Part shown: piece by piece, positions 11,997-63,042 of the stretch | Numbering within the stretch: the first letter of the stretch is position 1 | Layout: each line of letters begins with the position of its first letter | Origin: Rhizaria sp. SCN 62-66 | Taxonomy: Eukaryota | DNA: 64,000 bases | Assembly: GCA_001724265.1 (NCBI GenBank) | Contig: MEDY01000123.1 | Location: forward strand, 1-64,000 | Direction of reading: 5' to 3' | The notes under the pieces: generated by a model | The model's database searches: none | Seen by the model: only the letters and a program-made list of their open reading frames with translations | Told to the model about the DNA's origin: nothing | Translations under genes and position numbers: made by a program

Positions 11997-14900
11997 AACA
12001 ACTGCAACGCTGCCCAGGTCGCTTGCGTGTCCCCCCGCAGTGACCGCATTGGCGGCGGCTCTGTCTCGCGCCTTGTGTTCTCGGTCCCGCCTGTGCTCGA
12101 CGTATGCTCGATCGACGGGCTGCGCCGCGGGGTGCCGCTCGCCGCGGCGCAGCGCTGGAAGGGCCTCAGCTAGCTGGCCGCGGGCCTGCCCGCGTACTCG
12201 CCCTCCGCCGCCGCCGCGGTCGCCGCCGCCGCCACCAAGAGCAACCCCGGCAGCAACAGCGGGGCGAGCGTGATCAGCGCGGTGGCACCGTTCGCGCAGC
12301 CCCCACGGCTGCCGTCGCTGGCACCGCACGACGTGATGGCCGGCGTCTGCGGCTGCGCGCAGTGCATCGCCACGAGCACCGTCAGCGCCGCGCTGCCCCC
12401 CGACGTGCCGCTCAACTCACCCGTATGCGGCGGCGCCGGCTGCGACGCGGGACCGGCTGGGGATACCGATAACGCCGAGACGGCCTCGATGGCCGCCGTG
12501 GCTGCGGTGGGCGCGGTGGGCGCGGTGCGGCTCATCGAGCTCATGATGCCGTGCGGCCGCCTCGTCCGGCTAGCACGCCCTGCGGTGCCCGGCACCGCAG
12601 CCTCCGCCTCTGCCGCGCACGGCCACGCAAGCGCGCTCGGTGGCGACTGCGGGGGGCAGCAGGGGTCGACGCTGTTCAGCATGGAGCGCGACATCGCCCC
12701 TGTCTTCGCTGCCGCAGCCATCGCCGCCGCGGCCGCCGCCACCGCAGCCGCGCAGTCGCAGTCGACGACGAAGACTGATGCAGCTGCAAAGACTGCAGTG
12801 GCGCCGCTGGCAGCGACGCTCCCGTGGCTGCTGTGCTCGGCGCTCTCGCCTGCGCAGCGCGCGCCGCTGCTCCAGCCCGCTGTCGCGCACAGCGGCGACA
12901 AGAGCCAGACTAAGAGCCAGGGCAAGGGCAAGGCGGGCGCGGCGGCGGCGGCGGCGGTGGCCGCGGCCCTGGCGAAGCTGCCGTTCGTGTTCCCATTCGT
13001 GCACTGGGTTGGCGGCGCGACCGCGAGCCCTGGCCAGCCGGTGCCGCAAACGGAGGCCGCCACCTCGCCCACCCACACCCGCGCACATGCTCACGGGGCT
13101 GCGCAGAGCGCTCGCTGCGACCGGAGCGCGCACGCGTGCAACCGCCACCAGGCGCAGCACAGCTGCGGACATGAGCATGCATTCGCAGCCGACACGTTCA
13201 CGACCCCGGTCTGCACGGCGACTCCCGCAACCGCACTGAGTCGCGACACCGGAAACCGCCACGGCGGCTGCGGCCACGGCTGCGGAGCTGCGCCGGCGAG
13301 CAAGACGGTGTCCGTGGGCGTCTGCGCGCGCGCGCCGGTATGCGCGTGGTCCTGGGAGTGGGAGCACACGGCGTGCGGCATCTGCCTCGACAACCTGCGC
13401 TGGCGCGGCACGCCCGCTTGGCCCGGGCTGCTCGAGCCCGGCCGCGACGACGGCGCCGAGACCGACGCGGTCGCGGTCGCGGCCGCCGCGGCTACGGCTG
13501 CCGCAGCTGCCGCGGCCGCTGCTGCTGCAGCCACTGCGACCGCCACCGTTGACAACAACTCCGATCCCCACAACAGCAGCGACATCGTCGACGCGATGCC
13601 CCACTCCATGTCTGCGCCTGTTCTCGGCTCTGCGCCTGTGTCTTCCACCACAACCCGCACGGGCGACAACGCTGCCGCGACCGCTGTCATCACCGTCGCT
13701 GCCGACGCCGCTGCAGGGACGACTCCCCGTAGCTCCCGCGCCTCGTCGGCGGCGTCCGCCGCGTCGGCCGCGCTGGCCGCAGCGGTGGCGCGCGTCGCGG
13801 CGTCCTCGGATAAGCCGGTGATTTCGATGCCGTCGCTTCCGTCGCTGCCGACGCTGCCGACGCTGCCCAGCTTTGAGGAGCTGTCCGCCTTGGCCACGCG
13901 CGGCGTGCAGTGGGGCTGCACGCGCGCGCTGCCGCCGCTTGCGACTGTGCCCAAGTTCACCACCACCACCCTGAGCAACAACAGCAGCACCGACGCCATT
14001 GACGTCGACGTCGACAGCAGTAATGCCGACGGCGGCAATCCCGGCAGCGGACTCTTCGCCATCGCGAGCCACGCCCAGATCGCGAGCGAGGAGGCTTCTC
14101 CCGGCGGCCAGTTGACCTACACCAGCGGCGGCTTAACTTTGGATGCCGAGCAGCTAGACGCCCTTGCCGCTGCCGGCGCTGCGAGCAGCCTCAGCAACAG
14201 CGGCAAGTTCACCTCGCGCCACCTCTCACGGTCTCTCTCGGCGCCGCGCCCGCCCGCCCACGGCCCCATCCCGGACTCCAACAGTGCCGCAGCGGCGAGC
14301 TTTGCTGCCGCGGCCCCCGCGGCCTCCCGGGGCAGCCGTCACCGCGCCACCCGCGAGCGCGAGCGCGAGCGCGACCGCGGCGGTGTGCTGCGCAGTGTGT
14401 TTGGCGGCATCGCGGCTCGGCTGAGTCTCAGCTCGCGCTCGCAGTCGCAGAACAACTCGCACTCGCTGCCGCACGTCCACGAGCACAGCGACGGCCACAG
14501 CCACAGCGACCACAGCGCTGGGCACAGCGACAGCGGCAGCGACAGCGAAAGCGACGACCTCGACGACGACACCGACATCGACGGCAACCTCAACGCGGCC
14601 GCTGGCAGTATGATTGCGAGCGGGCTGCTCGCCCCCGGCTCTCTGCGCGCCCGCGGCAGCAGCGGCTACCGGCGCTGGCGCCGCCGCGTGACTGCGTGCC
14701 GCCGCTTCCCCTTCGGCGGCCTCGCGTCGCCGCGCCCCCGCGGCTTCCCGGCGGCGCACCTGCCGCTCTCCGCCAGCGCCGGGTCTCCCGTCGCCACCAG
14801 CGCCGGCGCGGCCGCGAGCAGCAGTCTTGTCGCCACCGGCCCCACGTCCTTCGCGCAGGCCCGCGGCTCTCGCCCGGCGTCGGCGGCCACGCCCACGGGG

Positions 14901-16457
14901 CGCGCGATGGCCGCGCGCGACAGTGAGCAGGCGCGCGAGCGCGAGCAGCGCGAGCGTGAGCTGCGCGAGCAGCGCGACCGGGAACGCGAGCGCGAGCGCG
15001 ACGAGTCCCGCACGCTGTTCCTGCGCTGCATCGGCTTTGTCGCCGCGGTCGCCGGCGGCGCGCACCTGCGCGGGCTCATGCTGGGCGGCGCCATCTGCCT
15101 CAAGGCGCTGCGCGCGCACCGCCTGCGCTGCGGCGCGCGGCCCGCGACGCCGCCGACCGCTGCTGTCACCGAGACGGCGCCTGCTGTTCCGCGTGAAGGC
15201 GACCGCGCGGCCGCCGCTAGTGCCGCTGCCGTGCTATCGCCGGCGCCGGTCATCATGTCGGAGACGACGCAACAACGCGCTTTACTCGCTAGGCGTGACG
15301 ACGCCGACTCCACTCCTGGGTCTGCTGCGGCGTCCTTCTCGTCGCTTGCGCCCGCCGCCCCGAACATCTCCGACCCCGCGTCCGCTTCCCTCGCGCCCGC
15401 GCTCGCTCCGCCACCCGTGCTGCCCGTGTCTGCTTCCGCGCCCCTCGCCTCGGCGCCGCGCCCGACCGTTGCCGTGGCCGCGGCCGCCGCAGTGGCCGCC
15501 GTCGCTGCCGCCGCGGTCGCCGCGACTGCTGCGGGCGCCGCGGGCGAGACGCTGTCGGTGACGGCGCTGGCGCTCGCGGCCGGTGCGGGCGCAGGGGCGG
15601 GCGTGCGCGCTGCCCGCCGCAGCAGCATGAGCAACGCTACGACGGCGGGCAGCAGCAACGCTGATGCTAGCAGAGACAGCAGTACCGCGGCCGACGGAGC
15701 CACTGTCGCATCCGCATCCGACGCTTCTGCTGAGAACTCCACCCATACGTCTGTCACGGTCTCTGCGACGGCGACCGCGACGGCGATGTGGTCCGAGGCA
15801 CTCACCGCGTCCGCGGCGACCGTGATGACGCCCCCCGAGCTCAACACCCCCGAGGCCGAGGCGGCCGAGGCCGCGGCGGCTGCGGCGGCCACGGCCGCGG
15901 CGGGCGCACGACTGCTCCGCCCGCTGCCGGTGTGGCTGACGGGGGCGTACGGCCCCCACGGGCGCACGCCGTCTCCCTCGCTCTCGCTCGGCAAGCGCTC
16001 CGCTGCTGCCGCCGCCGCCAGTGGCCCGGTCCCCGCTGCCAACAGTGCCATCGCGAGTAATGCGTCCAGCAACGCCGCGAACCCGTCCGCGCTTGTCACG
16101 ACTCTTCCGGCCTCCGTCGCCGGCGCCGTCGTCAGCCCGGCCAGCGCGAGCATCAACAACGGCGGCGTGGGCAGCAGCGGCGGGTGGGACTGGGGCGGCG
16201 ACTGGGGCGGCGACTGGGGCGGCGACCTGCTCGCGCTGCCGCGCCAGTGCGAACACGTCGGCCACGTGTTCCACCTCCACTGCCTGTCCAAGTGGACGCG
16301 GCGCCGCCTGCAGTGTCCGCTGGACCGCCAGCCGGGCGGGCGCGAACCCGTGATGCCGAACCTTGAGAGAGTCGTCGGGTGGGCTAGAGGCGCGTGGCAG
16401 GCCGCGGGGGCTGCTGCCTCAGCAGCGGCCGCCGCCGCAGTCGGCGAGCCGTGCTAA
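9781..16457 (+). CDS. ~2170 aa putative membrane-associated RING-H2 E3 ligase-like protein; 2 exons (9781-10684, 10837-16457), one in-frame TAG (12171-12173)
   Basis: Intron GTACGT(10685)...CAG(10836) joins YDIYQ-G-YHTF in frame. ORFs 10695-12173 and 12270-16457 share a frame and are separated only by TAG (KGLS*LAAGLPAY). Hydrophobic segments near 10890-11290. RING halves CGICLD (~13374) and CEHVGHVFHLHCLSKW...CPLDR (~16248). Ends TAA. Confidence 0.7.
16189..16226 (+). repeat. 12 nt coding tandem repeat (DWGG x3) just before the second RING half
   Basis: actggggcggcg is repeated three times. Confidence 0.85.
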
Positions 16458-17431: not shown

Positions 17432-20400
17432 TTAGTCCATGGAGAAAAGCTGTGCGTAGAGGTCCTCAACGGCCATGCGGGCACCAGCCGCCAGCAGCAA
17501 CACGGGCCTCTCATCCGCCCTCAGACCCTCCTCCTCGCACTCACCAGCGCCTGCATGGGCAGACACGTGCAGAATGCGGTCAGTGAGCAGCGGCAACGCA
17601 AGCAACGGAGTGCGCAGGCGCGCCGCAGAGGCGAGAGACCAACGCTGCCAGTCCCTGCGCTCCGCAAACAGCGACGCGAACTCGCGGCCATGCTCTCCAC
17701 GGAGACTGTCGCGGGTGACGACAGTGCGGCTTGTGCTCACGGTCACGTCCTCAATCTCGCTATCGTCATCATCAGCACCGTCGTCCGTGTCGGCGTTGCT
17801 GTCGGCACCGTTGTTGACGAAGACGGAGGAGTTAGAGCCAGTGGCCAGTGCAGCGCCCGCCGCAAACAGGAGCTCAGTCGCGGCGTCAGCAGCAGCGGCA
17901 TCAGTTGCAGCGGCGCAACTAGCGGCAGCTGAAGCAGCGGCGCCGGCAGCAGCAGTGATTGCGATAAGCGCACACCCGGCAGTGCTTGCACGCGTGGGGA
18001 GAGTGACATCGAGCTCAGCGTCAGCGTCTGCGCTCATCCGCAATGCGCTGCCGCGGCGCTTGTTGCTAACGAGAGTAGCCGTGGGTGCAATAGACAGAGT
18101 AGCAAACATCGCCTCGGTCTCAGCCACGCACTCTGAAGCTTTGCTATTGCCAGTTGCCTCAGCAGTGCCGTCGACGTCATCCTCCGCATCGTCGAAGCCG
18201 CCGAAGGCGACAGGGGCGGTGAGCCCGTCGTCACCACAGTCGGCACCGTAGCCACTCGTATTGGCGCTCACGTTGCTGTTATAGTACGAAGTACTGGGCG
18301 TGGAAGCAACGCTGTTAGATGAGCCCGTCGCAATGTCAAACGCGTCGCCACCGCCGTCGCATTCGCACTCACTCCCAGTTCCAGGCTCGGTGGTCGCGGC
18401 AGCGTCGCTGTCCGCAGCGGTACCCTCGGACCCGGGCGAGCCACGGGGCTTGCGAGGGGACCACAGCGTCTTGAGTTGTGTGAGGTCCATACCAGCACCG
18501 CTGCCGTTGCTGGCAGTAGCGTCACTTGTCTCGCTGCCGTTGGGGTCAGCGACGGCGGCCTCACTGTCAGCATCGCTGCCACAGCGGACGACAGAAGGAG
18601 AGTTGCTCTCAAGAGAGTTTGCACTGGTCTTGGAGGCGGGCGTTGCAACGACAACGGCGATGCGGCTTGAGCGAGGGCTCAGCTTGCGGGGCGTCTGCAT
18701 CATCGCGGCATCGCAAACGTTGGCATGACCACTTGTAGCGGCAACAGCAGGGGCGTGAGCAACGTGAGAGCCTGCCTGGGTGTGCGCGTGAGAGTTGGTG
18801 TAGTGAGGCGGGGTGAACGTGAGCTCGGCGCCCGCGCGCGCCTGCTGCACAAGAGCGCGAGCCGTGGCCGCTGCGACCGGCGACGCAAGCACAGACTCGA
18901 ACGACACACCACTGCAGCGCGCAGCAGCTGCAGCAGCGGCGCGACGCGGCGACGCAAGGGCAAATCCGACTGCCTTACGAGAGGGCGACGGACTCACAAA
19001 CGCGCGCTTAGCGTCGTTACTGGCGTCATCAGCGTTATCAAAGCCCGAGGCAGAGCGCTTGCGGGAGGCACCGTGAGCAGGACTCGCGCCGGCATCAGTG
19101 TTGTAGCGGAGAGCCTTGTACGGGGCGGGAACGGGAGCGCCAGCACCGGTGCCGGCAAGAATCTGGCGGTAGAGCGCAGGGGACGCAAAACCCTGGGTCA
19201 CGGCGCGCTGATAGAGGCAGCGGTAGCGCAGGAGGTCGGATGCGACGTGGCGGCAGACAGCAGCAAAGGTCTCGGAGACAGCCATCAGAGGCGCGTGCGA
19301 GCGGTGCAGGTTCCATTGAAGACCATAGTTGGGGTCCGTGTTGATGCATAGCGAACGCAACCTCTGCATACTCTCATGGTCCTGAAACGGGCCAAAGCTT
19401 AACATTTTGACGCGAATCAACTCCACGAACGAGTCGCCGTACTGCGGCGTAAAGTGCACCGCGAAGCGCAGGAACTCAGCGGCCGTCTTGAGTGAGAACG
19501 AAGGGAAGGTCGGGTTGAGCGCGATCTTGGCGCCCTCGCACCACACCTCGCCGGACTTGGGCGTCTCGCCCACCGCGAGCTGGAACATGCGTGACTGCTC
19601 CTCGAAGCCCTGCTCCTGCGCGAGCGCGACGCGCAGCGCCCAGAGCCGGCCCGTGCCGGGAAAGCGCGCGATAGCGGCGCGTACAAGGGCACGCGCGCGG
19701 TCGGTGCGGCCGGCGCGGACCTCGAGGAAAACTTGCTCAACTGGGGCCTTCCAGTCGGAGCAGGGGCATGAGGCCGCCGCAGACAGAAGCAGGCGGGCGC
19801 GGGAGCGGCCGCGGGCGAGCGCACGGGAGGACGCGTTGGAAGCGGAGAATGCGGGGGCGATGGCCGTGTTGGAAGTGGTGTTTGTAGGGGCGGGAAGCGA
19901 AAGCAGACCGCTGTCGTCGTCAGTGTTGTTACTGCAGTCGTTGACAGTCTCGTCGTCGCACTCGGAGTCATCTTCGCTGTCGCTATCGTCGTCATCACTG
20001 TCGCTGCTGTCGTTGATATTAAGGGCAGCAACACGGCCGCGTGCGACAGCATTGCCAGCCGTCTCCATGTCCTCGCCGTTCGCGTCGTCGCCGTTGCTGC
20101 CGCTACTGGCGGCCGCCGCAGCAGCCGCGGCAACTGCAGCAAGCGTGCGTTGCATGTCTTTTTCGCGGCGCACGCGCTCACTGCGGCGCAGAGCCGCGCC
20201 GCGGCGACTGTGCGGAGCGGCCTGAGGCGGGAAGAAGGCGTCCTCAACGGACTCAATGACTGCGCGCACAGCGGCGTCGACCTCGTCTGCCGCGGACTCA
20301 GCGCCATCATACCCGTGCTCACAGTCCTCGTCGTCATCAGCGCAGTCGCACACAGCGCTGTCGTCAGCACAGTCGACATTTTCGCTGCTGTTGTTGTCAG

Positions 20401-23400
20401 AGATCGTCGCCGCAAGCGTAGCGCCAACCTCTCCGGCGAGCTGAATAAGTGCATGGCTAATGTAGCCAGCAAGCTCCTCAACCTTGCCAGCCTCGACGAC
20501 AACTTGCGAGAGGACCTTATCGGTGCCGCAGGAAATAGCCCTGAGAAATACCACAATGAAAAGTAAATAAAAATAAAAGTGAGGTTAGTGACAACTAAAG
20601 GTGTCATAGACAGTCAATGATAGTGAGTGCAATACTTGTTGTTGCTGAACGTTTTCTTCGTACCTTTGGGCAAGAGCGCGAGCGACGCGAATGCGCTCAG
20701 CAGCAGTGGTCACGGTCATTTCAACAACGTTGAGGGCCTCATAGGCCTCATCGGTGTTCCAACCGAGCATCACGTCATTCTTGCTGGCGTTGTCGCTGCC
20801 AGCAGTCGCAGTAGCGCCATTGTTGCTGTTCAGCGAGTTCATGCTGGAGCTCGCACTAACGCTGCGGGGCACGAACGGAGCAGCAGCGCATGACAGCGGC
20901 GACGGGCCCGGGGTGGGGGCACTGTCGCTGTCGCACTCGCTGTCGTTGTCGCTCATCGCGCCAGTGTTGATGCCAGCAACCCTAAGCCTGAGTCCTAGTT
21001 CCGCCGAGTTGGCGTCGCGCACGCCGCTGCGCACTGCACTGCGCAGCTGCGCTTCGGCCTGCCACAGCGCCCACACCGCGGCGCGCGCCTCTACGCGGGC
21101 GCCGGCGACCCAGACGCGCCAGCGCAGCGACTGCGCGCACTCGCGCACGCAGCGGGCCAGCACGGCGCGCGCGCGCGGGTAGTCGTGCTGCCACGCCGCG
21201 GTCCACGCCTCCTCGACCTGCACACGCCACAACAGCTCCTGGTTCACCGCCGAGGCCGCCTGGCTCAGCGCGCCGTACACGGGCGCGAAGGCCTCGGTCG
21301 CGGCGGCAGCGCTTGCGGACACGGCAGCGCTGTTAGAGCTCGAACTCCAAGAGCCTGCGTTGCTATTGCTCGACTCAGAGGATGCGAGTGCAAAGAGAGC
21401 AAGAGTTGCGGAGGTGGCGGGCAGAGGGCAGGGAGTCGAATCATCGGTCTCAGGCTGTTGTTGCTGCGACTGCGCCTGACTGCCGTCGTTGGCACTTGAG
21501 CTCGAGCTGGAGGCCGTGCTGTTGGATGCGTTCGCGACAGCAGCGGCCGCGGCCGAGCCAGCCGGGTGGAAAGGGGCCGCCGCGGTGGGCAGCTGGCTGC
21601 TGGCCATGGCGGCGCCGCCCATGCCGCCGTACTGGCCGTGGGCCACGTGGCCGTGCATTGCCCCCGGGTGGCCGTGGGGCGCAAAGTGACCGTACGCACC
21701 GCCGTGCGCCATGTGGCTGTGTACCGCGGGGTGGTACACGTTGCCGTAGAAGTGGCCATGGGCCGCAGGGTGAGCGACAGGGTAGCCGCCGCCGGCCATG
21801 TACCCGCTGGGAATAAAGGCGCTGCTGTTCGCTGTGATGCCCGTGCTGCTGCTACTGCTGCTGCTGCTGCTGCTGGGCGGGTAGCGCGGGGTGACCCGGA
21901 GCGAGTCTGCCCACGTCTTGTCATGGCGGCACAGTGGCGGCGCGCTCAGCGCGGTCAGGTGCGCGCGCTGGAACAGGTGCGAGAGGTAGCCCGCAGTGTA
22001 GGCCGCCGACGCAACGCGAGGGCGCGACATCACTCCGGTATCACACTCACCGTCGTCCTCGCCCTCGCTGTCGCTGGCGCCGCAGTCCGCGTCCACGCTG
22101 TTGCCGTCCTCCTCCGCAGAGTGCGAGCTGCCGTTGGCGCAGCCGTGCGCGAGCAGAGGCAGCGCATCCTCGACGGAGCCCCAGGCGCGCGCGAGACCGG
22201 CGTTGTCGGCCATCTCGCTCAGCGCAGCGGGCAGCGCCAGCGGGGCCGCGCCCACGGCTACGAGCGCCTGCCGCTGCTGCACCTTGACTGAGGCGAGCCA
22301 CAGAGGCCCGTAGCGCGGGCAGGCGGCCAGGCCGTCGCGGACAGCGCGCGCGGCGAGGTCGAAGCGGCCGCGGACCTCCTCAAACTTGCTCGCCTCGGTG
22401 TAGATCGGGCCGTACCAGTTGACGTTGGACTTAAGAAACTTAAAAATGCGACGGGCGGTGTCCTCCGAGCCGACACGGGCCTCGAACAACGCGCCCTCGA
22501 CAATCACACGCCTGCGATGAGTTATGTTAAAAGAAAATACGGAGAACAAGTGTCAACATATGGGTGAGTCAGTTTTGATGTGAGCGGAATAAGGAAAAAG
22601 ATAACAAACATAGTTTTGCGATTGAAAATGAGCAATGCGTTCGCAACGTACCACGACTTAGAGAGCGACGCGTCAAGCACCGAAGCCAGGATCGCACGCG
22701 CGGCGGCCAGGTTGCCGAAGCGCTCATGCTGCTTGATGGCCTTGATGATCATCGCGTCGTCGGGATTCGCGCAGCGCTGGAGGCCGAGCATAAGGATGTT
22801 GAGGCACTGGTGCAGGTTCCCGGTCTCCTCGGCGACCTTGGCGTACTCCATGTACGCATGCGAAGCGGCCGGGTTGAGGTGCAGCGTGGCCTGGTAGTAG
22901 CACCGCGCCAGCGCGGGCCGGTTGTGGCGCCGCGAGAGATCCGCCAGCTCCATCGTGATCTTCCAGTGCGAGCGCTGCGGCGCCATGCGCAGCTGCGCGA
23001 GCCCGGACTTGTACGCCGCCTCGGGGTCCGTCTTGGCGAGCTGCCAGAAGGAGCGGTGCCACGACAGGAACGTCGCCTTCGTGCGAGGGGTCTCCGCCAC
23101 AGACACCGCGATCGTCGATGCGGGCGCCCCGGCGGCGCTGCCGGTGCTGCTGGAGCTGGACGCGGCCTCAGTCGGCTTGGTGTTGCTGTTTGATGCCACA
23201 CTCTCAGTCGCGCTTGCATTTGATGTGGGAGCAGTCACGGACGCAGAGGCAGAGGAAGCGCGAGGAACAAAGGCGGCCGCGTTCGCAGTCACAGTTGCGC
23301 TAACTGCGGCGTCCGAAGCGGGCACGAACGCAGGAGCAGACGCAGCAGGCATGAATGCATTGGCGCACGCATGCACGTTTGCGGACGCGGGCACGAAGGC

Positions 23401-28472: not shown

Positions 28473-28713
28473 GCCACATTCATGTCAAATTTGGCATAAC
28501 ACTGCCTCTCGCGGCGTTGACATCGACGTTACCAAGATTCATTTGCTACATAGTTTTCCCTCTCAATAAATACTGTTTATTTCCTTTGTAAATTGTCCTA
28601 TATATGCGTTTCTGTCTATATATTGCGGTATTAATTTCTACGTCCCTAGGTGCTAGTTGTGTGTCAAGCGATTTGCTTAGGTTCTTATGAGTGCGAGTTT
28701 TGGGGCTCAGTGT

Positions 28714-44428: not shown

Positions 44429-44633
44429 AGCGTTTCTTGCGACGTCTCGTTTGCACAAGTTTTGTGCCCTTTACTACATAGGCGATTCAAGTTAAACATC
44501 TATTATTGAGTTTATTATTCTTACAAGTCAGATATACAATACATCTTTCTACCTTGATATGTTATCCTTAACAACAAAACATCGGTGTGCTGTCATTTTT
44601 GTCTGTCAAAGTCGTTCCTTGTTCACAACGCCT

Positions 44634-45956: not shown

Positions 45957-46305
45957 GAAGTAGGTTGAGGAGCTTTAAGCCGAAAGACGAGTTGTTCAGA
46001 TCAAGGGTTATGCGCTAACAAGGCTGAAACCGAAGAGACGAACACTACAGATAAAGCAAAATAGAAAACATAGTAGACATGACATTTTGAGTATTATACT
46101 ATACATGTGCCCCTATTTGTCGGACTTGACGCACTCTATTTCATACTTCTTTACAACGTCCTCCGCACATGACTCACGGCTTGGCTCATCCCACCACATA
46201 TCATTATTTTCATCTGTCTCTTCATAGTCTGGTACGAGTGCAGGGTATATCCAAAATATACGATATACCGACGCTTTAGGTACTCAACCGGTTTGTTTTC
46301 GCACG

Positions 46306-50492: not shown

Positions 50493-53400
50493 ATGTCGGC
50501 GGTATCGCGTCTGCTGTCTCCTCGTCTGTCATCGATCTCGAACATCAACACCCCTCACGACGTTGCAAACAGCACAAACTCAGCCACAGCAACACTCGTC
50601 GCCAGCAAGTCGCCACAGTTTGCTGCGACTTCAAGTCGCAAGGAGGAAACCAAGTCGTCTATCGGCGGCTACTCGCCCCCTTTGCCGTCGCTGCTCACGG
50701 TCACGACCACAATGAGTTCGCCTACTGACAGCGCTCACATGCCAGCTGACAGCGCTCACAACAGCAACGTACAGATCAGCTCAAAGTACAGCGCCAACCC
50801 TGACATTGTTGGCGTGGCGCATAGCGCGGGCACCGATGTATACCCACCGAGCTCTGTGCCTGTGTCCGCAGAAACCACTGCTTCTGCACCCTCGGTCGCC
50901 ACCAGCAGCAGCCACACTGCAGATGCCATTGTTGCTGCCAACGAGAAACAAGTCAGCTCTGGTCTGGCAAGCCACACATCATCGGCGCGTCACACAGCAC
51001 TATCGCCAATGACATTCAGCACAAGCACGCATACGAACGGTCGTGCGCCACCATATGCGCCCTTTGCCAGCTCCCCGATGCAGCTGCAGCAGCTCCATAA
51101 GCAAAGCCTATAGTTTGCACATCAACCAAAGCAACACGCAAGCGAGATTGCACCGTACGGCGTTTCCCAGGCTGCGCGCGACTCTATCCAGTCTCACAGC
51201 GCTGGCGCCGCCGCTGCGCTGTCTCTCGCGCTAGGGACCCGGCAACACGCCCCCGTCGATACCACGGTGACGCCGCGCCCGCACGCGCCGGCGCGCAGGC
51301 CAGACAGCCCAGTGTTGAGCGCCGCTGTGCCGTCGCGCGTTACGCCTCAGCTTTACTCGCCGCAGAGCCAACCACCCGGTGCTGGAGTTGTCCCAGCTGC
51401 AACAGCCGCCACAGCGCAAACGCTGTTCGGCAGTGGGCTCAGCGGCGACGGCAACCGCGTAGACAGCAGTGGCGACCTGCGGTCAGCGAGCAGCCGTGCG
51501 AACAACGGCAACGACATCGGTAACAGCAACGCAGTAGGCGCTCAGCCGCATTGTGCAAGTGAAAACAACATCATCGGTTTTGGTGCGTTACATGCGCCAA
51601 CTACGCAGCGCGCGGCAACCTACTCACTGCCACAGTCACACACTGCACAGAGCCCATGCGCAAGCACGGCGCCCATTAAGTCCAAGCATTAGACTCAGCA
51701 TAGGTACATGATACAGCGAGCTGGGGCAACTCACGCATCATCTGCCAACCAAGCTAACAGTTACGCCGGCGCCGACTCGACTGATGTCAGCAACTTTACG
51801 AATACGGCGCGCGAGACAACTGGTGCTTTTGCGGCGTTCACCAGAGAAGCTTTGCACTCATCCTACACAAGCGCTAAACTGCACCCACCGCCGCGTCCTA
51901 GATCAGCGCAGGCGCTAGGAGCGACGTCGATGCGACTTGCAAGCGAGGCTCTTGGATTTGCTACTTCAAGTGCCCATGGTCATGGCCGTTATATCCTTGG
52001 TCATGACGCAAGCAGCGCGGTTGCTGAAGCTGCAAGCAGTGCTGCACGTGCCGCTCTGACTGGAACAGAGCTGTTGAACCAGTTGCCCACGCCCAGCCCT
52101 GGATTAAGCAATATTAGAGGCGGTCGTATAAACGCGCAACATAGCTCAAGTTCACTTCTCTCAGCTATACTCGGCGCTAATGTCACGGCAACAACCTACA
52201 TCAACTCCCTTGCATCAACGACTCCAACGCTACATCTCACACCGAGTCACTCAACAATCGTTAACTCAAGTAGCAACACCGGCACGAGCACTGGAACCAA
52301 TGTGATGCATGCCCACGACAGCGCGTATGGTCATAGTTGCAGTTCAGCAGGAAACAACAGCGCACACGCGATGCGCGGTGGTCTTGCAGGCAGTCTCTTG
52401 CGTACTGTCACTCCCTTGCTTCGCGTTGGCTCGGCGTCAATTCTCATGGCATCGCCTGCCGCGCTTGTTGCGTGGCGCGCTAACCGGTCCGGCCACAGTC
52501 ACGCTGCAGCAGTTGATGGAATGCGGACTGCCTCGGCATTTCCTCCGACTTCGATCGCGTCTGTGGGACGCGCAGCTGCAGTCACCGCGGCAGCATATGC
52601 GCAAAACGGCTGTGGCAATAACAATGCGATCTACCGTAGTGACAGTGTCATGACTGCAGCTAGTACCAACGGTAGCGTCAGCGACGAGTTGTGGCGTGAG
52701 CTTGGTGCTGCGACGCCGCTGCTGTCATCAACTGGCAATGCAATTGCAGCAAGCCACGTGTACACCGACTTGAATGCTAAGGAACACGTGCTCACACATA
52801 ATTCCACATCGAGCAACAAGAGCAATACTATAAGTAGTCAACAAGGAGATGGCCATAAAGACGCCGTCACAACGCCCGTCTTTTCCGATCCACTGAAGCC
52901 GTCGTTTGTTGACGGATCGGCGCAAGCTTTAGCACCGTGTCGTGCACAAAATGCCCATCATGAACCAGGACAACGGTTGACAATGCAACCCCCGACAGTG
53001 CCGTGTCTAGATAGTACCGGGCAAACAAAGTTTGCAGGTAAGAGAGTACTTGCCCACGGCGATGGATTCGTGCTGAAACCTTTTACGCACGGCAGTGACA
53101 GTCTTTCTGCATCTATGCCTGCAGTTGGCGCCGCAAAAAAACAGCAGTTTACTTTACATCTAACGAGCGGGAATGCTAGTTACCCAGCGTCTCATTCACA
53201 TCACGCCCGCTTTAGTCCTGCACCACTTGCTGCACCCACACCGCCACCGCATTATGGTGCAATTCCTGCAAGCACGGCCGGAGGAGCAAGTGGTCGCCTG
53301 GGATCGCTTGCTTCAAAAGCCGACCCTAGAGAGCTGAACAATGCGGATGTCCTGCAACAGCAACAACAGCAACAACAACCGCAAAAGCAGCCGCGCCGAC

Positions 53401-55193
53401 AGCCACAACTGTTCGGCGGCAGTGATAATGATGACGAAGACCACAAGCACAGTGAGGACGACAATACAGTCTTCCTCGGTTCTGTCATCGACCCCAAAGC
53501 CCACCAGCAAACCACCGGAACTGAACAGGGTCCCGCTTACTTGCCGTCTAACACCGCGATGCTACTGCACACCAACAGCAGCAACCCGGATATTAGAACC
53601 GGGCGTGGACTCAAGCGGCAGCTGTCATCACAAACACTCCCCACCACTGACAGCATTGGTGCCACTGCTGCCTACAGTCATCTGCGCCAGGCTATCTCAC
53701 GCGGACATGATGTGCAGTGGCTACACCAACATCATAACCAACAATGGCAGCCTCCGTCTGCCACTGCGTGTGCACCTAATGCACAGTTGCACTGTCAGCC
53801 AGATCCGACGTCACAGCAACAGCAGTTTTAGCAACAACACCAAACGCAGTTAACACACGCAACTGCAGCACAAAGCTCGACCGCACTTGGGACTGAGCAA
53901 CCGCATCTTCGCTTTGAGCAGTTTCCTGCCAGCCATTTTACAACTGCACACAAACACTCAGCTATGGTCATGCCAAACGCCGGTGCACAGTCTAGCGCGC
54001 AGGGTAGTGTGCTGCCTTTGTGCACCGCGGTCGGAACACCTGATGCTAATCACATTGGTCAGACAAATGGACTCGGTGCCGCGACTGCTGGCTTCTTTGC
54101 GCAAACTGGCCTGCTGTGGATGGGCTCCCAACCGCCAGTATTGCCAATTGCAAGTAAAATCAACGCACTTCCTGTCCCCTCGGCGGCGGCAGCAAACCCC
54201 ATAGTCAATGGCAGCGCAATCACACACCGAGTTGCATCAGTCGGCAGCACGACAGTTAACGGCAGAGCCACGCACCGCTTCAACACAAGCGCCGCCAGCA
54301 GCACACTGCACCGCAACGCCGTCTACGCCCTCGAGACCGCGTCCGGTCGCCGCGTCCCGCGCCGCCGCGCTTTTCCGGGCTCGCCCGAGAGCGTCTACAG
54401 CACTGGCGCCAACCACCACGCTGTCACCGGTGTCGGCGGCGGCAGGAGGGCAGGTTTCGGCCGTCGCTACAACGCCGGCGGCGAGGCCCCCATCATCATA
54501 CGCGGCGCACGCCTCGCGCCCGACCCCGCGGTTGCGGCAGCCGCAGCCGCAGCGGCAGCAGCCGCCGCCGCGTCGGGCGACCCGCTGAGCGTTGCCGCCG
54601 GCGACAGCCCCAGCGGCCTGACTGCGCAGGGTTTGGACCGTGCGCGCGCAATCGCGAGGGAGATGGCCGAGGCGCGGCAGCAGCGGGGCCACTCGACGGC
54701 AGGCCAGAGGTCGCTGCCGGACGACTCGCTGCAAACACTGCAAAACGTACGTCTGCGTTACTATGATGTTATATACCTCTGATACAAACTGTGTTTGAAT
54801 TCTGGTTTCACTTACATTGACGTGTTCTCATTCCTCTTGGTTGTCATTCTTCTGTTTAAGTGGCTATACACCCACTTCGACGAGCCTTACCCAACTGAGC
54901 AAGACAAAGAGGAGCTTGCGCTCGCGACAGGTTTGACAGCGAAGCAGGTCAACTACTGGATGATCAACGCGCGTGTCCGCCTGTGGAAGCCTGCAATCGC
55001 GCGGGTGCGGGCTGACGGCGAGACGGAGGCCCAGGCTGCGACTGGGGCGGATGCTGGTATGGAAGCTGCTGCAACCGCAGCTGAATCCGCTCTCAGCATC
55101 GCCGTTGCAGCAGCAGCCGCAGCCGCGACAGCAGCAGGTGCAGGAACAACATTCAGTCGTACAAATGCCTTAAACAACAATAACAATAACTGA
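50493..55193 (+). CDS. TALE-class homeodomain transcription factor, ~1530 aa, three in-frame TAG codons; 2 exons (50493-54746, 54861-55193)
   Basis: Four same-frame ORFs are separated only by TAG (51111-13, 51690-92, 53829-31). Intron GTACGT(54747)..AAG(54860) yields RSLPDDSLQTLQN-WLYTHFDEPYPTEQDKEELALATGLTAKQVNYWMINARVRLWKP (PYP loop, W.INAR.R). Ends TGA. Confidence 0.85.
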
Positions 55194-55684: not shown

Positions 55685-58363
55685 TCATTTGTTGAAGTCA
55701 AACTCGTAGTCGACATCCTCGAACTCCTCCGGGATATCATCGCCTAACGGTTTCGCAGCCGCAGCCGACGGCTTGGCGGCAGCAGCACCCGCAGCAGCAC
55801 CACCAGCGATGGTCGTGTCGACGCTGTACGTCTCATTTACACCTGCATCAGCCGCACTCGTGTTGTTCGCGTTGGTGGTTGCACCAGGAGCCGCGAGGTA
55901 GGCAGAGGCACGCGCGGACACCTGCTCACTGTCAGCATTCTTCGCATTGACAGTCGCACTGGAGACGTTGTTGTGGTTGTCCTCGTTGTCAATGTTGGCG
56001 TACATGGCCTCGATCGCGTTCGAGTCCTCCAGGTATGCGAAGCTGTCGCCGACGACGCCGGTAAAGCCCAGTCCGCCGGCGCCGCCGTGCGCGGCCACGG
56101 CCTCGTTCGTCATCGTCGCGGCGAACCCCGCGTTCGCGGCCGCCGTCGCGTCCACAACAGCCGCGTCGGTGGCGGCGGTCTTGGTCACGTCGACATCGGT
56201 GTCGCCGCAGTTGCCGTTGGCCTGGCCGAGCCCGTCGTCGTCAGCGTCGTCGAGGTGCTGGCCCGCGCCGTGGACCGCCGGCAGCGCGCCGTCGCCGGTG
56301 ATGGTGGCCGTGAAGACCGCGGAGCCGCCGACGGTGCCGGTGGCGGAGGCCGACTGCAGCCCCTCTGCGTAGCCCACGCCCGACGCCGCGACCAGGCCCA
56401 TGTAGCTGACGTTGCCGCCCGAGGTGTCGAGCGCGGAGGCGTTGTTCGCGCCGCGACCGAGGTACGTGTCGTCCTCGGAGTACGACACGTCCGCGTTGGC
56501 ACCGCTGGCGCCGATAGCGGCGGCCGCGTTGGACGGGGACGGGCCGGCGCTGTTGGTGGCGCTTGTGTTGTTGTTGGCGGCCACGGCGAGCGGCAGCGCC
56601 GAAACGCGGTCACGGGCCTCCTCGTCCGCCTCGTTGTGCTCCCCGGCCCCGGCCTTGCCGTGGCTCGCGGGGGCGGCGTCGAAGGCTTCGTAGTCGAGCG
56701 TGGCCGCGTAGCTCTCGCCCGCGGCGTTGCGGCCAGCAGACGCGCCGTTGTCGCCGGCGTCGTCACCCGTGCCGTCGCCGGTGTGCACGCGGCCGCCCTG
56801 GGGCGGGATCGACTGCGTCAGCGTCATGCCCAGCGTGTCCACCAGCTTGTTGTTGCCGGCGCCGTTGCTGCCACTGTTGTCGAGCAGGCCTGCGCCGCTG
56901 GTGTTGGTGCCGACCGGGGACGCGAACGGGTCCTGGGTCGGGTCCCACGCGCTCGCCACCGCCACGGCCGCGGTATTGCCGGTGGACTCGGCGTCCTTCG
57001 GTGCAGCGGGGTCCGCGGAGTAGGTGTCGTTGGCGTTGTGGGTGTCGTTGATGTCGATGTCGATGAAGTCCTCCGGAATGTCTTCATCAATAGTAGCCTT
57101 GCCCGCCGCGGGCGCGGACTCGGGGCCAGCAGCGGCCGCACCGGGCTCGCCGTGCGCGACGGCGTCGTCCTCGTCGTCGTCGAGCAGCGAGCGGCCCGAG
57201 GCCCCGAACGCCGACGACTGGCGCGAAGCACGGTTCTTGCCCCTGCGCCCGCCGACGCTCACAAATCCACCTGCGGCGGCCCCGAAATCATCTTCCGCGT
57301 CCGCGCCTGCGTCGGCCTCTGCATCGGCCCCCGCCACGGCCTCAGAGACGGCCTCGGACCCGGAGCTGCCGGCGGCGGCGGGCTTGGCGAGCGGGAGCAG
57401 CCCGCGCGAGGGGGGGAACGACGCAGCCGACGCCGCCACGACGGCAGCGCCAGAGTGGTCGTCGTCACGCGCGGTGACGCCGGCGACGGCGGCCGCGAGC
57501 TCGGCGTCGTCGACGGTGGCCGCGCTGGCGTCGGGCTCGTCATGCGCGCTGCCGCTCGCAACCGCGGCCGCGTTGTCGGCGTTCGCACTGCTGTTGGCGT
57601 TGGTGTTGCTGTTTGTGTTGGCGCTGGCGTTAGGGCGCGTGACCGAGACGGAGCGCGTGGTCGAGGGGCTGTGGCTGCCGGGGGCCGAGGCGGAGCCGTT
57701 GGTGAGCCCCATCATCGCAATCCCGTGAACGGCCGTGATGATCTGCGTCAGTACGGGCGGCTCCTCCAGCGCGCTGGGTGCGAACGTCTCCGCCTCGTTG
57801 CCGTTGCCGTCAGCAGCAGCAGTAGCGTCATCTGCGTTGGCACTCGCACTCGAGGGCTCGAGAAAGGAAAACTGTGGGACGATGGCCTTGCGCTGCGTGA
57901 AGGCGTGGTTGGCGAGGTTGGCCTCGGTGACGAGCACGGACCAGGTGTGGTCGAGCTCGTACGCATCGCAGAAGTCCTTGATGAGCGAGAGCACCAGTTC
58001 GTCCATGGGCGACTCAAGCAGCCGCCGCTGCAGCTGCGTGCGTGGCGGGAACGGGCCGTTAATCGGGTCAAAGTCGGCGGTGTTAACTGCACGGTGGATC
58101 GAGGCGCGGATCTGTGCCTGTGTACAGGTGTGTGGTTGTGCGTGCAGAGGTGCGGGAGTGGGAACAGTGAGTGGAGTGGTGGCAAGAACTGACATGAACG
58201 GTTGAGAGTGAGGGGTAATAGTGACGTCAATGTCCGTCGCTAACCAAGTAGATATAAAAAGGTAATTGCCAGAAATAGCACGCACCTTGATAGAAGACAG
58301 CACACCGAGATGGCCCAAGGATTCCACAACGAGTCCCTTGAGCTCGTCCCCGGTGTCGGCCAT
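55685..58363 (-). CDS. FOP/CEP43 (FGFR1OP)-family centrosomal protein: N-terminal TOF/LisH domain plus a long acidic disordered tail; 2 exons (58363-58286, 58117-55685)
   Basis: ELKGLVVESLGHLGVLSSIK-AQIRASIHRAV after removing the 168 nt intron (GTGCGT 58285..CAG 58118), then LisH ELVLSLIKDFCDAYELDHTWSVLVTEAN. Ends TGA. Confidence 0.8.
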   Translation of the reverse strand: MADTGDELKGLVVESLGHLGVLSSIKVRAISGNYLFISTWLATDIDVTITPHSQPFMSVLATTPLTVPTPAPLHAQPHTCTQAQIRASIHRAVNTADFDPINGPFPPRTQLQRRLLESPMDELVLSLIKDFCDAYELDHTWSVLVTEANLANHAFTQRKAIVPQFSFLEPSSASANADDATAAADGNGNEAETFAPSALEEPPVLTQIITAVHGIAMMGLTNGSASAPGSHSPSTTRSVSVTRPNASANTNSNTNANSSANADNAAAVASGSAHDEPDASAATVDDAELAAAVAGVTARDDDHSGAAVVAASAASFPPSRGLLPLAKPAAAGSSGSEAVSEAVAGADAEADAGADAEDDFGAAAGGFVSVGGRRGKNRASRQSSAFGASGRSLLDDDEDDAVAHGEPGAAAAGPESAPAAGKATIDEDIPEDFIDIDINDTHNANDTYSADPAAPKDAESTGNTAAVAVASAWDPTQDPFASPVGTNTSGAGLLDNSGSNGAGNNKLVDTLGMTLTQSIPPQGGRVHTGDGTGDDAGDNGASAGRNAAGESYAATLDYEAFDAAPASHGKAGAGEHNEADEEARDRVSALPLAVAANNNTSATNSAGPSPSNAAAAIGASGANADVSYSEDDTYLGRGANNASALDTSGGNVSYMGLVAASGVGYAEGLQSASATGTVGGSAVFTATITGDGALPAVHGAGQHLDDADDDGLGQANGNCGDTDVDVTKTAATDAAVVDATAAANAGFAATMTNEAVAAHGGAGGLGFTGVVGDSFAYLEDSNAIEAMYANIDNEDNHNNVSSATVNAKNADSEQVSARASAYLAAPGATTNANNTSAADAGVNETYSVDTTIAGGAAAGAAAAKPSAAAAKPLGDDIPEEFEDVDYEFDFNK

Positions 58364-58495
58364 CGGTAGAGTCCTGCGGATACAAGCGGGAATACAAATC
58401 GTAGAGATGTGTAAATAAGGAAATCAGTACAACACAGCAGACTAATCCGCAGAGGGTTAATAGTATAACAATAGAACGAATAAATACCCTCGATA

Positions 58496-58876: not shown

Positions 58877-60110
58877 ATGCCTGTTGATCCCAACGCTCCT
58901 CGCAAGGCCAAGACGACCAAGGGCCAGCGCGTGCTGGACAACCGCGCGCCGAAGCTGACGGAGAACGAGAAGAAGTGCATCTTCGTCCGCGGCCAGACGT
59001 GCTCGGACCTCATCTCCAAGTCCATGACGGACCTCTGCGCGCTCAAGAAGCCTGAGTCGAAGATGCTGTCGAACAAGAACCCGATCCGCCCCTTCGAGGA
59101 CGCGACTTCGCTCGAGTTCCTGACGCGCGTCAACGACTCGTCGCTCTTCTGCTTCGGCTCCCACTCCAAGAAGCGCCCGCACTCGCTCGTCTTCGGCCGC
59201 ACTTTCGACTTCCAGATCCTGGACATGCTCGAGTTCCAGATCGACCCCTCGACGTTCAAGACGATGCAGGACCTGTCGAAGGACCGCGAGACGACGTCGC
59301 GCATCGGCGCCAAGCCGCTCTTCGTCTTCATCGGCGACCAGTTCACGCACGCCGAGGACATGCGCACCTTCCGCTCGCTGCTGCTCGACATGTTCCACGG
59401 CATCGACGTCTCCAAGACCAACCTTGCCGGGCTCGACCGCGTGATCATCATCACCGCCACGGTCAACCCCTCGGACATCACCAAGAAGGTCGTCTACTTC
59501 CGCCACTACAACGTACGTCACTACGCTTTGCTTTCTTTCGAGAGTGTTTGCACGTGTTTAATCGGATATATCATGTCATTGATATATTAACATGCCAAAA
59601 ATTCATATAACGTACGACAACATTATCATTTCTCACATCTTGCTCCTTGAACTCTAATATTTTGTTACGCTTGCATCTACACTTGCACAGGTGCTGAAGA
59701 AGAAGTCCGGCACGCGCTTCCCCCGCGTCGAGCTGGAGGAGGTGGGCCCGCGCATGGACCTGACCTTCAACCGCTCCTCGTCGGGCTCGCTGGAGATCCG
59801 CAAGGAGGCGCTGCGCGTGGGCAAGGGCGCCACGATGGCCAAGCGCAAGAACGTCGAGATTGGCCAGATGGGCCAGCTGCTCGGCCGCGTCCACATGCAG
59901 AAGCAGAACCTGGACGAGATCGCGCTGGCCAAGCTCAAGGGTCTGGGTAAGCGCGTCAACACGGGGGCCAAGCGCACGCTGCCGCGCGACGCGCCCGAGC
60001 CCGGCGCGCAGCTCTCGGACGACTGGAAGGTCGTCGCCGGCGACGCGCAGAGCAAGAAGCGCTCGCGCATGCTGCCCGCCGCATACGCCAACTCTGTCAT
60101 CTCGGAGTAA
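58877..60110 (+). CDS. RPF2: Ribosome production factor 2 (Brix domain); 2 exons (58877-59512, 59691-60110)
   Basis: KGQRVLDNRAPKLTENEK, KNPIRPFED..SLEFL, SLFCFGSHSKKRPHSLVFGRTF..ILDMLE, KKSGTRFPRVELEEVGPRMDL, GRVHMQKQNL. Intron GTACGT(59513)..CAG(59690). Ends TAA. Confidence 0.95.
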
Positions 60111-60870: not shown

Positions 60871-63042
60871 ATGTTGCACCCTGCAGGCTCGGCCGTTGCC
60901 TCCAGTCCGGTCCCGGAGCTGTCCCCGTCGTCGTCCTCGCACAGCCACGCTGACCCCGACGTGGCCGCCGCCGCCGCCGCGAACGCTGACGCCGTCGCTG
61001 CGAGCACGGTGATCCCCGCGTTGCCCGCGTCGGTGTCGGAGACGACTGAGACGGCTGCCGTGAAGCTTGTGCACAGTCTATCGCTGTCCCGCCACAACAG
61101 CAACGCGTACGCGCACAGCCACAGCCACGGCCCGAGCCACACGTCGTCAAGCGCCAATCTGAGCAGCAACGGCAACTACGCTGCCGACGCTATTGGCGCC
61201 AGCGGTGGTGTGCACAGCGCCTACGCCCACGCTAACGCTGGCGTTGGCGGCCCTATTGCTGAAGCGTACGGCGGCAACGACACGGACGCCGAGTCCACTG
61301 ACGGCCACACGGTCACCGTCACCTCGGACGACCCCAGTCTCGCTGCGGCCGATGCCGCCGACAGCGCGGACGGGGCCGGTCTGAGCGGCGAGCACAAGCC
61401 GATGCCGCCGGACTTAGCATCGCACGTTGTGCTGCTCAAGGTGCTGTACTTTCTGCAGGGCATGTCCGCGGCGTCGTGGGGCCGCTTTGGCACGATTTAC
61501 TACCTCTCGCGCGGGCTCACGCGGTTCGAGATCGGCATCATTGAGGGGCTCATCCCGTCGATCACGATGTTCGCGTCGCCGATCTGGGGCATCGTTGCCG
61601 ACAAGCTGCACTCGCGCAAGAAGGTCGCGCTCTTCACGCAGTCAGTCTCGGTCTGCATCCTCTGTCTGCTCGCGTTTCCCGCGCTGGCGAGCGGCTTCGA
61701 GTCGATCCTGGCCATCTCGATGCTCATGGCCGCATTCGTGTCCTCGGGCATCCTCGACGCGCACACGCTCGACGTGTTGGGCAAGGATTACTTCTACGCC
61801 TACGGGCCGATCCGCATGTGGACCTCAATCTCGTGGGGCATCGGCGCGCTTTTCCTGGGCTTCCTCACAGACTCCTTCTCAGTCTACTCCATCTTTGTCG
61901 TCTATGCTATCCTCGCCACCACCTCGATCGTGGCCACATCGCGCGTTGTGCCCGAGCAGACGCACAACGAGGCGCGCCGCGCCGTGGGGCCGCCACCGCA
62001 GCTCTCGGCGCTTTTCCGGGCACTCACGCGCCCGCGCATGCTCTTCTTCCTGTTCTAGATCGCGCTCTTTGGCGCCGGCATGGCCGTTGTTGAGCGGCTG
62101 CTCTTCATCTACCTGCGCGACGACCTGGGCGCCAGCAACTTCCTCTGCGGGCTCACCGTTACCGTCACGGTTATCTTCGAGCTGCCTATCTTCATGTACG
62201 CCGACCAGCTGCTCAAGCTCTTCGGGCACCATGGCATGTTCTTGATCGCCATGGTCGCGCACACGGTCCGCGTTTTCCTCTACACGCTGCTCACGCGCGA
62301 AGCCGTCTACGCGATCCTGCCGATCGAGATCACGCACGGCATTACCTTCGCGTGTATGTGGACCGCGGCAGTCGAGTACGCCAAGATGGGCGTGCCCGAG
62401 GAGTGGTCCTCAGCCGCGCAGTCGATCCTCGCCGCCACGCTCGGCTGCGTCGGCGCGGGCGTCGGCTCCATTCTTGGCGGATACGTCATGGACCGCTACG
62501 GCGCCATCGCGCTCTACACGGGCACCGGCATCATCGGGCTCTGCACCATCGCCATGCACCTCGCCTTCCACCTCGTCACCAAGATCATCGACGAGGGCGC
62601 CGCCGACGGCCGCCACAGCGGCGGCGCGGGCGCGGGCGAGCTCGACGACGGCGTCACACTCGACGGCATCGACGTTACGATAAGCGGCAGCGCCAGCCCC
62701 GCTGCCGCCGACGGGGTGGGCGTGTCCAGGGCCGCCGCATTCGCGGTCGCCGAGACCATTGACGGCGGGGGCAGCGGCGGCGGTGTCGGCGCTGGCGGCG
62801 GGGTCCGCGAGCAGGTGCCTGTCGGACTGGCCGCGGCACCCGCTGCTAGCGGCTACAGCAAGTACAACGACGACAACGACGACGACGGCGACGACGCGGC
62901 GGCGCGGTACAATGCACAGCACCAACAGCAGCGGCAACAGCAACAGCAGCAGCAGCAGCGGCAGCGGCGCACTGCGGGCGGCGCCGTGGAGATGGGCAGA
63001 GTGGGTGGGTACCGCAGCTAGTACGTGGCCGGAAGCAAGTGA
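60871..63042 (+). CDS. Major facilitator superfamily transporter (MFSD6/MFS_1-like), ~723 aa, in-frame TAG at 62056-62058 and 63019-63021
   Basis: N-half (LLKVLYFL, SPIWGIVADK, YGPIRMWTSISWG) and C-half (FGAGMAVVERLLFIYL, VIFELPIF, EITHGITFACMW, GVGSILGG) are in one frame, separated only by TAG (MLFFLF*IALFGAGM). The next non-TAG stop is TGA 63040-63042. Confidence 0.88.

Follow-up and report, generated by a model that had tools for sequence, protein, structure and literature searches.

In-frame TAG codons in nuclear genes of an uncultured eukaryote point to a UAG-only stop-to-sense recoding

The stretch of DNA analysed here, referred to as the window (64,000 nucleotides (nt), 63% G+C), is made up of GC-rich blocks alternating with AT-rich stretches (30-45% GC) and carries, on both strands, what Pfam identifies as typical eukaryotic nuclear genes. 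A search of sequencing runs retrieved the same DNA from several studies, in metagenomes of bioreactors, wastewater, activated sludge and microbial fuel cells, and it is therefore taken to be a contig of an uncultured organism. A first-pass annotation had proposed that TAG is a sense codon in these genes while TAA and TGA remain stops, on the grounds of 13 in-frame TAGs in six genes. Gene models were built independently of that list, from Pfam hits, the GC profile and splice sites, yielding 16 complete coding sequences and the 3' end of RPS27a, that is, 17 gene ends and 17,040 sense codons; all 16 complete models are in frame, with one terminal stop each and no frameshift. Every one of the 13 TAGs was found where it had been reported, on the reported strand and in frame in the rebuilt models, where they affect six of the 17 genes with at most four per gene. 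Coordinates of TAGs on the minus strand are cited by the first (highest) base of the codon.

The best-supported sense TAG (62056-62058) lies within the MFS_1_like domain (Pfam, 3e-59) of a single-exon gene for an MFSD6-like MFS transporter (60871-63042, plus strand, ending in TGA), whose second TAG (63019-63021) precedes the TGA by seven codons, is followed by a composition resembling that of untranslated regions (UTRs) and could be either sense or terminator. A divergent CDK-like kinase gene, also of a single exon (28714-31464, minus strand, ending in TAA; Pkinase 5.1e-24 on the read-through open reading frame (ORF)), contains four TAGs: codon 11 after the presumed start (31432-31434), one between profile positions 4-37 and 99-169 (31027-31029), one upstream of the catalytic core (30439-30441) and one between this core and the C-terminal profile part 235-261 (29134-29136). 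If translation started instead at the next ATG past TAG 31434, which stands directly before the glycine loop, the N-lobe of the kinase would be truncated. Two TAGs belong to a two-exon AlkB-like gene (36692-40043, minus strand, intron 36918-37023, ending in TAA): the first (39135-39137) upstream of the HxD segment, in a frame of 1,081 codons free of TAA and TGA, and the second (37293-37295) between that segment and the C-terminal exon. In the TAF5 gene (40701-44428, plus strand, two exons, intron 42126-42250, ending in TAA), recognized by TFIID_NTD2 (1.3e-12), WD40 (9.1e-42) and TAF5 matches in PDB, the TAG is codon 62 (40884-40886), between a weak, sub-threshold LisH match (E 0.014 to 0.039) and NTD2. 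A RING-H2 gene (9781-16457, plus strand, two exons, intron 10685-10836, ending in TAA) carries one TAG in exon 2 (12171-12173), with a GC content of 0.76 within 100 nt on either side, no AT-rich stretch nearby and a frame of 2,174 codons without TAA or TGA. The remaining three (51111-51113, 51690-51692 and 53829-53831, the last within a Gln-rich run) are found in a two-exon TALE-homeobox gene (50493-55193, plus strand, Homeobox_KN 3.2e-18, ending in TGA), where they precede the homeodomain by about 300 to 1,200 codons and no Pfam match covers them; they share a frame of 1,528 codons that has neither TAA nor TGA, against 9.3 and 7.5 expected from its own composition. The labels AlkB and RING given to two of these genes do correspond to Pfam matches, both of them below the curated cut-offs (2OG-FeII_Oxy_2, E 0.004-0.0096; zf-rbx1, E 4.1e-06). 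The AlkB-like protein had no PDB match at E <= 1, and when its four pieces were searched apart only the HxD segment matched 2OG-FeII_Oxy_2 (E 0.004).

The other 11 models have no in-frame TAG. On the plus strand they comprise the 3' end of RPS27a at the left window edge (2-112, Ribosomal_S27 3.7e-15, ending in TAA), a gene with the ciliary coiled-coil domain CCDC113/CCDC96 (5726-7729, 1e-40, TGA), a glutamate 5-kinase gene with a PUA domain (32431-36009, AA_kinase 2.2e-42, PUA 2.6e-17, TGA), a glycosyltransferase family 2 (GT2) gene (46306-49632, 2.8e-09, TAA) and a two-exon RPF2 gene of the Brix family (58877-60110, 1.5e-33, TAA). Minus-strand genes are the last exon of a gene to which no function was assigned (654-5111, TGA), an Aurora-like kinase gene (8165-9118, 6.8e-75, TGA), a TPR/HAT-repeat gene and a TPR_12-containing gene, both found by Pfam and of three exons (17432-24297, TAA; 24858-27643, TGA), a translin-family gene (44634-45956, 3.6e-32, TAA) and a two-exon FOP-dimer-like gene (55685-58363, E 0.00014, below the cut-off, TGA). 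Of these genes, only the one with the CCDC113/CCDC96 domain and that with the sub-threshold FOP match back the earlier description of the organism as a flagellate. The conserved domains encoded at 28714-31464, 36692-40043, 44634-45956 and 9781-16457 are interrupted by low-complexity insertions of great length, in which Ala, Ser and Asp abound: the translin match extends over residues 70-402 for a model of 205 positions, the kinase and 2OG-oxygenase cores are each stretched over several hundred to about 1,000 residues, and the CxxC half of the RING-H2 domain ('ACGICLDNL') apparently stands some 950 residues upstream of the matched C-terminal half.

Ten introns of 106-178 nt are evident as AT-rich stretches within the 63% GC contig (10685-10836, 20541-20663, 22512-22651, 26022-26169, 26644-26812, 36918-37023, 42126-42250, 54747-54860, 58118-58285 and 59513-59690), in agreement with the lengths of 100-180 nt and the GC-rich background noted at first pass. 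Their 5' splice sites are nearly invariant (GTACG in nine of ten, GTACGT in seven, GTGCGT once), all ten end in YAG (Y, pyrimidine) or AAG, and four end in TAG. Splicing restores continuous conserved peptides, as in the TALE homeodomain, which is split by 54747-54860, and the FOP N-terminus across 58118-58285. Another four TAGs, apparently in frame in the raw ORFs (5114, 26024, 36920 and 42248), were rejected as codons, being 3' splice sites or part of AT-rich leader or UTR sequence; that at 36920 supplies the 3' AG of the AlkB-like gene intron. TAGs 9127 and 46225 are in frame upstream of the presumed Aurora-like and GT2 starts, in AT-rich leader sequence, and were not counted as sense.

Several observations place the 13 TAGs inside coding sequence. 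The MFS_1_like match runs as one stretch through TAG 62056, covering profile positions 3-371 of 373, and 18 homologs aligned at this point show no gap, conserved flanks on both sides and a column composed of E (12), Q (4), K (1) and L (1); splicing at this site is therefore excluded. In the CDK-like gene, parts of the Pkinase profile occur in their proper order in three TAG-bounded pieces and span three TAGs: positions 4-37 between TAGs 31434 and 31029 (E 0.061 when searched by itself), positions 99-169, the largest and best piece, between 30441 and 29136 (6.8e-17), and positions 235-261 downstream of 29136 (E 0.33 by itself). Taken as a whole, the read-through ORF reaches 85.5 bits, whereas the best single piece reaches 62.2. 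Composition is of the coding type on both sides of 12 of the 13 TAGs, continuing so for 60 codons after them; the earlier statement that it does so after each TAG fails at 63019 only. After all 16 terminal TAA or TGA codons, on the other hand, the GC content of the three codon positions drops to about 0.3-0.55, the level of UTRs. Local GC at the TAGs is 0.48-0.79, and not one of the 13 is preceded by an AT-rich stretch opening at a GTACG-type 5' splice site. None of the 13 TAGs lies within an intron.

The counts of the three stop triplets differ from what base composition predicts. Among the 17,040 sense codons TAG occurs 13 times and TAA and TGA not once, as had been claimed with explicit inclusion of the CAA-rich homeobox gene, while the positional base composition of the same genes would lead one to expect 158 TAG, 30.5 TAA and 25.9 TGA; in the two other sense frames the respective numbers are 115, 106 and 559. 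With the RPS27a fragment included, nine of the 17 genes end in TAA, eight in TGA and none in TAG, a small sample in which the TAA and TGA ends fall exactly at the boundary between GC-rich and AT-rich sequence. The first-pass annotation had likewise found no gene ending in TAG, and its total of 18 genes, nine with each stop, becomes 17 here. If TAG ended 20-30% of genes, a share that we assume, the probability of finding none among 17 ends would be 0.023 to 0.002. A symmetric scan of the window for stop codons at such boundaries revealed no sense-strand ORF ending in TAG there; the scan is noisy, in that antisense frames of GC-rich genes stay open, and its two events of TAG followed by AT-rich sequence are antisense to known genes. 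The four genes richest in G+C at third codon positions (GC3), namely RPF2 (0.96), TPR_12 (0.91), CCDC113 (0.90) and glutamate 5-kinase (0.90), lack TAG altogether, and the codon is commonest in those with the lowest GC3 (homeobox, 0.57; AlkB-like, 0.70; CDK-like, 0.73). Together with the TAG frequency of 13 in 17,040, this pattern suggests a disfavoured minor codon, as in other recoded organisms; in terms of the codon-capture literature, such rarity would fit an early stage of capture.

The same TAGs were found in DNA from other samples. Contigs of four runs (X3, X4, X6 and X7) were compared with positions 28600-48599, a stretch holding seven of the TAGs. X3, a DNA run from a study other than the likely source of the window, covers all seven with no difference. 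X4 is also DNA, since its contigs span introns and intergenic sequence; it covers six of the seven and keeps five, among them 31434, 31029, 30441 and 37295, as well as 39137, which is covered by its record 12 with no change listed. The sixth, 40884, reads CAG in X4, and this T-to-C change is the sole difference from the window along a contig of 1,386 nt (39739-41124). TAG 29136 is covered, unchanged, by record 26 of X7, judged to be probably DNA. One X4 contig at 34746-34827, in the glutamate 5-kinase gene, shows 13 differences, 12 of them spaced by multiples of three, which suggests a second, more diverged relative or a paralog in that sample. Public gene calls made with the standard code stop exactly at TAGs 62056 (P0003), 63019 (P0006), 31029 (P0306, P0455 and P0456), 30441 (P0305 and P0454) and 29136 (P0304); P0003 and P0006 recur on six contigs each and the other calls on one to five each, and contigs that bear such calls reach 207,920 nt. 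The calls for 60871-63018 (P0003/P0006) and for 28714-31464 (P0304-P0306) break off at each TAG and resume at the first ATG, GTG or TTG after it, and protein-cluster look-ups showed no strain variant bridging a TAG. Since the TAGs recur in DNA contigs of another study and in gene calls on several contigs, assembly error is an unlikely source of them.

At the DNA level, this is the pattern of a real UAG-only stop-to-sense recoding. The proposal of the first-pass annotation thus agrees with the checks on homolog alignment, composition, introns, terminators and independent DNA, and we consider it very likely that UAG is decoded as an amino acid in this organism while UAA and UGA remain terminators. 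In such a system UAG would be read by a dedicated tRNA with the anticodon CUA, most simply a copy of tRNA-Glu(CUC) or tRNA-Gln(CUG) with one anticodon base changed, and eRF1 would have lost efficient recognition of UAG; the tRNA and eRF1 steps are modelled on other recoded nuclei, as presented in two papers (PMC5304391, PMC12153298).

A number of points weigh against this interpretation. Homologs are conserved at the position of just one of the 13 TAGs; for the 12 in lineage-specific low-complexity sequence it is the continuity of the frame, not an alignment, that speaks for a sense codon. The gene models are delimited by TAA and TGA, so that their zero in-frame count is partly built in; off-frame counts and the collinearity with homologs and Pfam profiles provide independent controls on it. 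TAG 63019 is indistinguishable from a terminator by position and composition. For the polyA RNA run X6, eight pieces are listed; they fall within several genes of the compared stretch and on none of its seven TAGs. Among the splice joints listed none is credible, their sides measuring 18-24 nt in repetitive GC-rich sequence. Neither a tRNA or other Rfam match nor an eRF1 gene is present within the 64-kb window. Finally, the clues to the amino acid conflict, the likelihood test at one site pointing to Glu and the strain variant CAG to Gln, as described below.

Among the alternatives, the one that survives best is a dual meaning set by position, as in Condylostoma, with UAG read as sense inside genes and as a terminator near the 3' end of the mRNA. 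TAG 63019, standing just seven codons ahead of the TGA that ends the MFS gene and followed by UTR-like sequence, is what this arrangement would produce; set against it, none of the 17 gene ends needs TAG, every gene having a TAA or TGA precisely where GC-rich sequence gives way to AT-rich sequence, and we regard a dual meaning as improbable. Somewhat less credible still is a standard code with leaky termination, in which UAG would be a stop read at low efficiency by near-cognate tRNAs in six genes. The rarity of TAG would suit it, and the base directly after six of the 13 TAGs is C; a C following a stop codon favours readthrough. Yet hardly any full-length protein would be made from a kinase gene with four interruptions or a transporter gene interrupted midway through its domain, and no gene terminates with TAG. 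Nor do the TAGs, spread over six of the 17 genes, share a downstream context that would indicate programmed readthrough: the 13 next codons comprise 11 different triplets, which upholds the earlier remark that these codons vary and form no fixed readthrough signal.

The preferred reading, UAG as sense with UAA and UGA as terminators, also has to be weighed against changes in the mRNA, through either unconventional in-frame introns or U-to-C editing. The C in place of T at 40884 in X4 and the lack of any TAG covered by the listed RNA contigs could be read in this way. However, nothing is spliced out at TAG 62056, where the homolog alignment is free of gaps; the TAGs are set in sequence that does not resemble the canonical introns, which are AT-rich and open at a GTACG 5' site; and X4, the run that has the C, is DNA and keeps its five other covered TAGs. 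Removal or alteration of the TAGs in the mRNA is hardly tenable in our judgement. We give equally little credit to the ordinary reassignment of both UAA and UAG (UAR), with TAA unseen owing to the GC-rich genome. A genome rich in GC3 would make TAA rare anyway, as the CAA:CAG ratio of 96:452 in the gene models illustrates. Nonetheless, for a code in which TAA shares the meaning of TAG, the CAA:CAG ratios of the six TAG-bearing genes predict 4.56 in-frame TAA; none was found (P = 0.0105), which argues against the ordinary UAR code, and in nine genes a terminal TAA marks the very point at which composition sinks to the level of UTRs. The internal TAAs as frequent as TAGs by which the first-pass annotation would have recognized the ordinary UAR=Gln code are thus not seen (0 TAA, 13 TAG). 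As to pseudogenes, nonsense alleles or assembly errors under the standard code, the TAG/CAG polymorphism of TAF5 between samples is their one attraction, and they are dismissed as scarcely conceivable given 13 TAG with no TAA, TGA or frameshift in 17,040 codons, the same TAGs in DNA contigs of another study and in gene calls on up to six contigs, and the six of 17 genes, TAF5 included, that would have to be dead.

If UAG is sense, the amino acid that it specifies can be approached at two sites. In 46 homologs the column of TAG 62056 holds E (33), Q (7), I (3), K (1), L (1) and H (1), with no gap. A maximum likelihood (ML) test on a fixed tree, in which each of the 20 residues was tried at this site under LG+G4 with a uniform prior, gave conditional probabilities of 0.81 for Glu, 0.056 for Asp, 0.0375 for Gln, 0.025 for Lys and 0.0023 for Leu. 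On the other hand, the near-identical X4 strain has CAG (Gln) at TAF5 TAG 40884, a change that is synonymous only if TAG means Gln. Gln is also the commoner outcome of UAG reassignment in the published cases compared. From this one site and one polymorphism our rough judgement is that Glu may be the residue inserted, with Gln almost as probable, some residue other than these and Leu doubtful, and Leu itself least probable; the single informative site makes UAG = Leu unlikely. Further relatives added little at the TAG sites. A search with the CDK-like protein against 1.84 billion representative sequences returned its own three pieces and then matches of E 4.5e-23 or weaker to the kinase core, not to the TAG sites; a metagenome scan with the MFS protein retrieved no further DNA of the organism or of close relatives; and a scan of genome contigs for relatives gave 62 loci, all bacterial and 21-40% identical in the best segment. 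A metagenome scan with an alignment of six relatives found one locus of 2.7 kb with 45% identity, which was not used.

With regard to the identity of the organism, the RPF2 protein has an environmental relative with 79% identity and belongs with a small clade of environmental sequences and one EukProt transcript. In a tree of 26 rows this clade falls on the Plasmodiophora side, apart from the animal, fungal and Balamuthia rows (Shimodaira-Hasegawa-like approximate likelihood ratio test (SH-aLRT) 99); that side holds no other named lineage and named non-opisthokont rows are few, so that the tree says only that the organism is not an opisthokont or a relative of Balamuthia. No named ciliate appeared among the best 120 RPF2 hits, a search of a protein atlas for the lineage gave generic Brix clusters only, and the Aurora kinase gave no lineage signal, its hits from animals, plants, algae and Bigelowiella all lying at 54-66%. 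For the MFS protein the five closest sequences form a group with 51-59% identity, and the fourth-best homolog (P0004, aligned to window positions 61402-62580 with 52% identity) is labelled Lygus hesperus. No other insect and no trypanosomatid occurs among the 58 MFS hits, and P0004 is probably a protist contaminant of Lygus hesperus transcriptome data. These data hold a sainouroid rhizarian with UAG = Leu and a Blastocrithidia, according to a 2017 paper (PMC5304391). The Lygus-labelled homolog may thus offer a possible lead to a rhizarian affinity, short of placement.

Whatever its affinity, the public gene calls of this organism are in pieces at every TAG checked, and its proteome in metagenome catalogues is systematically fragmented because standard-code gene calls are cut at TAGs. 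Nuclear codes in which UAG and UAA differ in meaning are few: besides some ciliates, a 2024 discussion names a single case each among rhizarians, fornicates and green algae. In the literature compared, UAG alone is recoded and UAA still a stop in the rhizarian 'exLh' (UAG = Leu), in Iotanema spirale and Protocruzia (Gln), in Scotinosphaera (Ser) and in certain phyllopharyngean ciliates (Leu or Gln). A full-text literature search, which left most subscription journals outside its reach, returned no further non-ciliate UAG-only case and no rhizarian case after 2017. It is plausible that the recoding described here is independent of these lineages.

The fornicate Iotanema spirale, with UAG = Gln, UAA and UGA as stops and UAG making up about 8% of Gln codons (PMC5304391), resembles the present organism in being a non-ciliate with a UAG-only change and UAG as a minor codon (here 13 of 561 Gln codons, if TAG is Gln). 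It differs in that the single conserved site favours Glu over Gln here, in a GC-rich genome with spliceosomal introns, and the RPF2 search and tree found no link to Fornicata. The rhizarian exLh from the Lygus hesperus transcriptome data, for which the same paper gives UAG = Leu and 384 UAG in 71 genes (PMC5304391), likewise keeps UAA and UGA as terminators, and the Lygus hesperus label on the fourth-best MFS homolog is a further likeness. Leu, however, receives 0.0023 at our one informative site, where it is found in one of 46 homologs, and TAG is far rarer here (13 in 17 genes). Phyllopharyngean ciliates and Protocruzia share the UAG-only reassignment, to Gln or Leu with UAA as a stop, which arose independently in them and is known partly from metagenome-assembled genomes (PMC11687900); those are ciliates, whereas the contig studied here combines 63% GC with 106-178 nt introns, and its best 120 RPF2 hits include no named ciliate.

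Two other systems are instructive should TAG prove to be Glu. In the ciliate Oligohymenophorea sp. PL0344 UAG is Glu, UAA is Lys and UGA is the sole stop (PMC10553269, PMC11687900); UAG may mean Glu in both organisms, but here TAA ends nine of 17 genes and is not recoded. Blastocrithidia, with an AT-rich genome, UAR = Glu read by a cognate tRNA-Glu(CUA) where UAG is concerned, UGA = Trp and a lower use of the recoded codon in highly expressed genes (PMC12153298), may again share UAG = Glu, whereas all three stops are recoded there and TAA and TGA are never in frame here. In the compared literature UAG = Glu occurs only where UAA is recoded as well, in one ciliate and in Blastocrithidia, and a code with UAG = Glu and with UAA and UGA kept as terminators would be a combination that this literature does not describe. 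We advance that combination tentatively, at somewhat less than even confidence, for this unplaced, uncultured non-ciliate recurring in wastewater and bioreactor metagenomes. Another independent case, if true, coming from an abundant wastewater eukaryote, would add data on the uncoupling of UAG from UAA to those from Iotanema, exLh and the ciliates, drawn from a genome that is rich in GC, contains introns and so far uses TAG only rarely.

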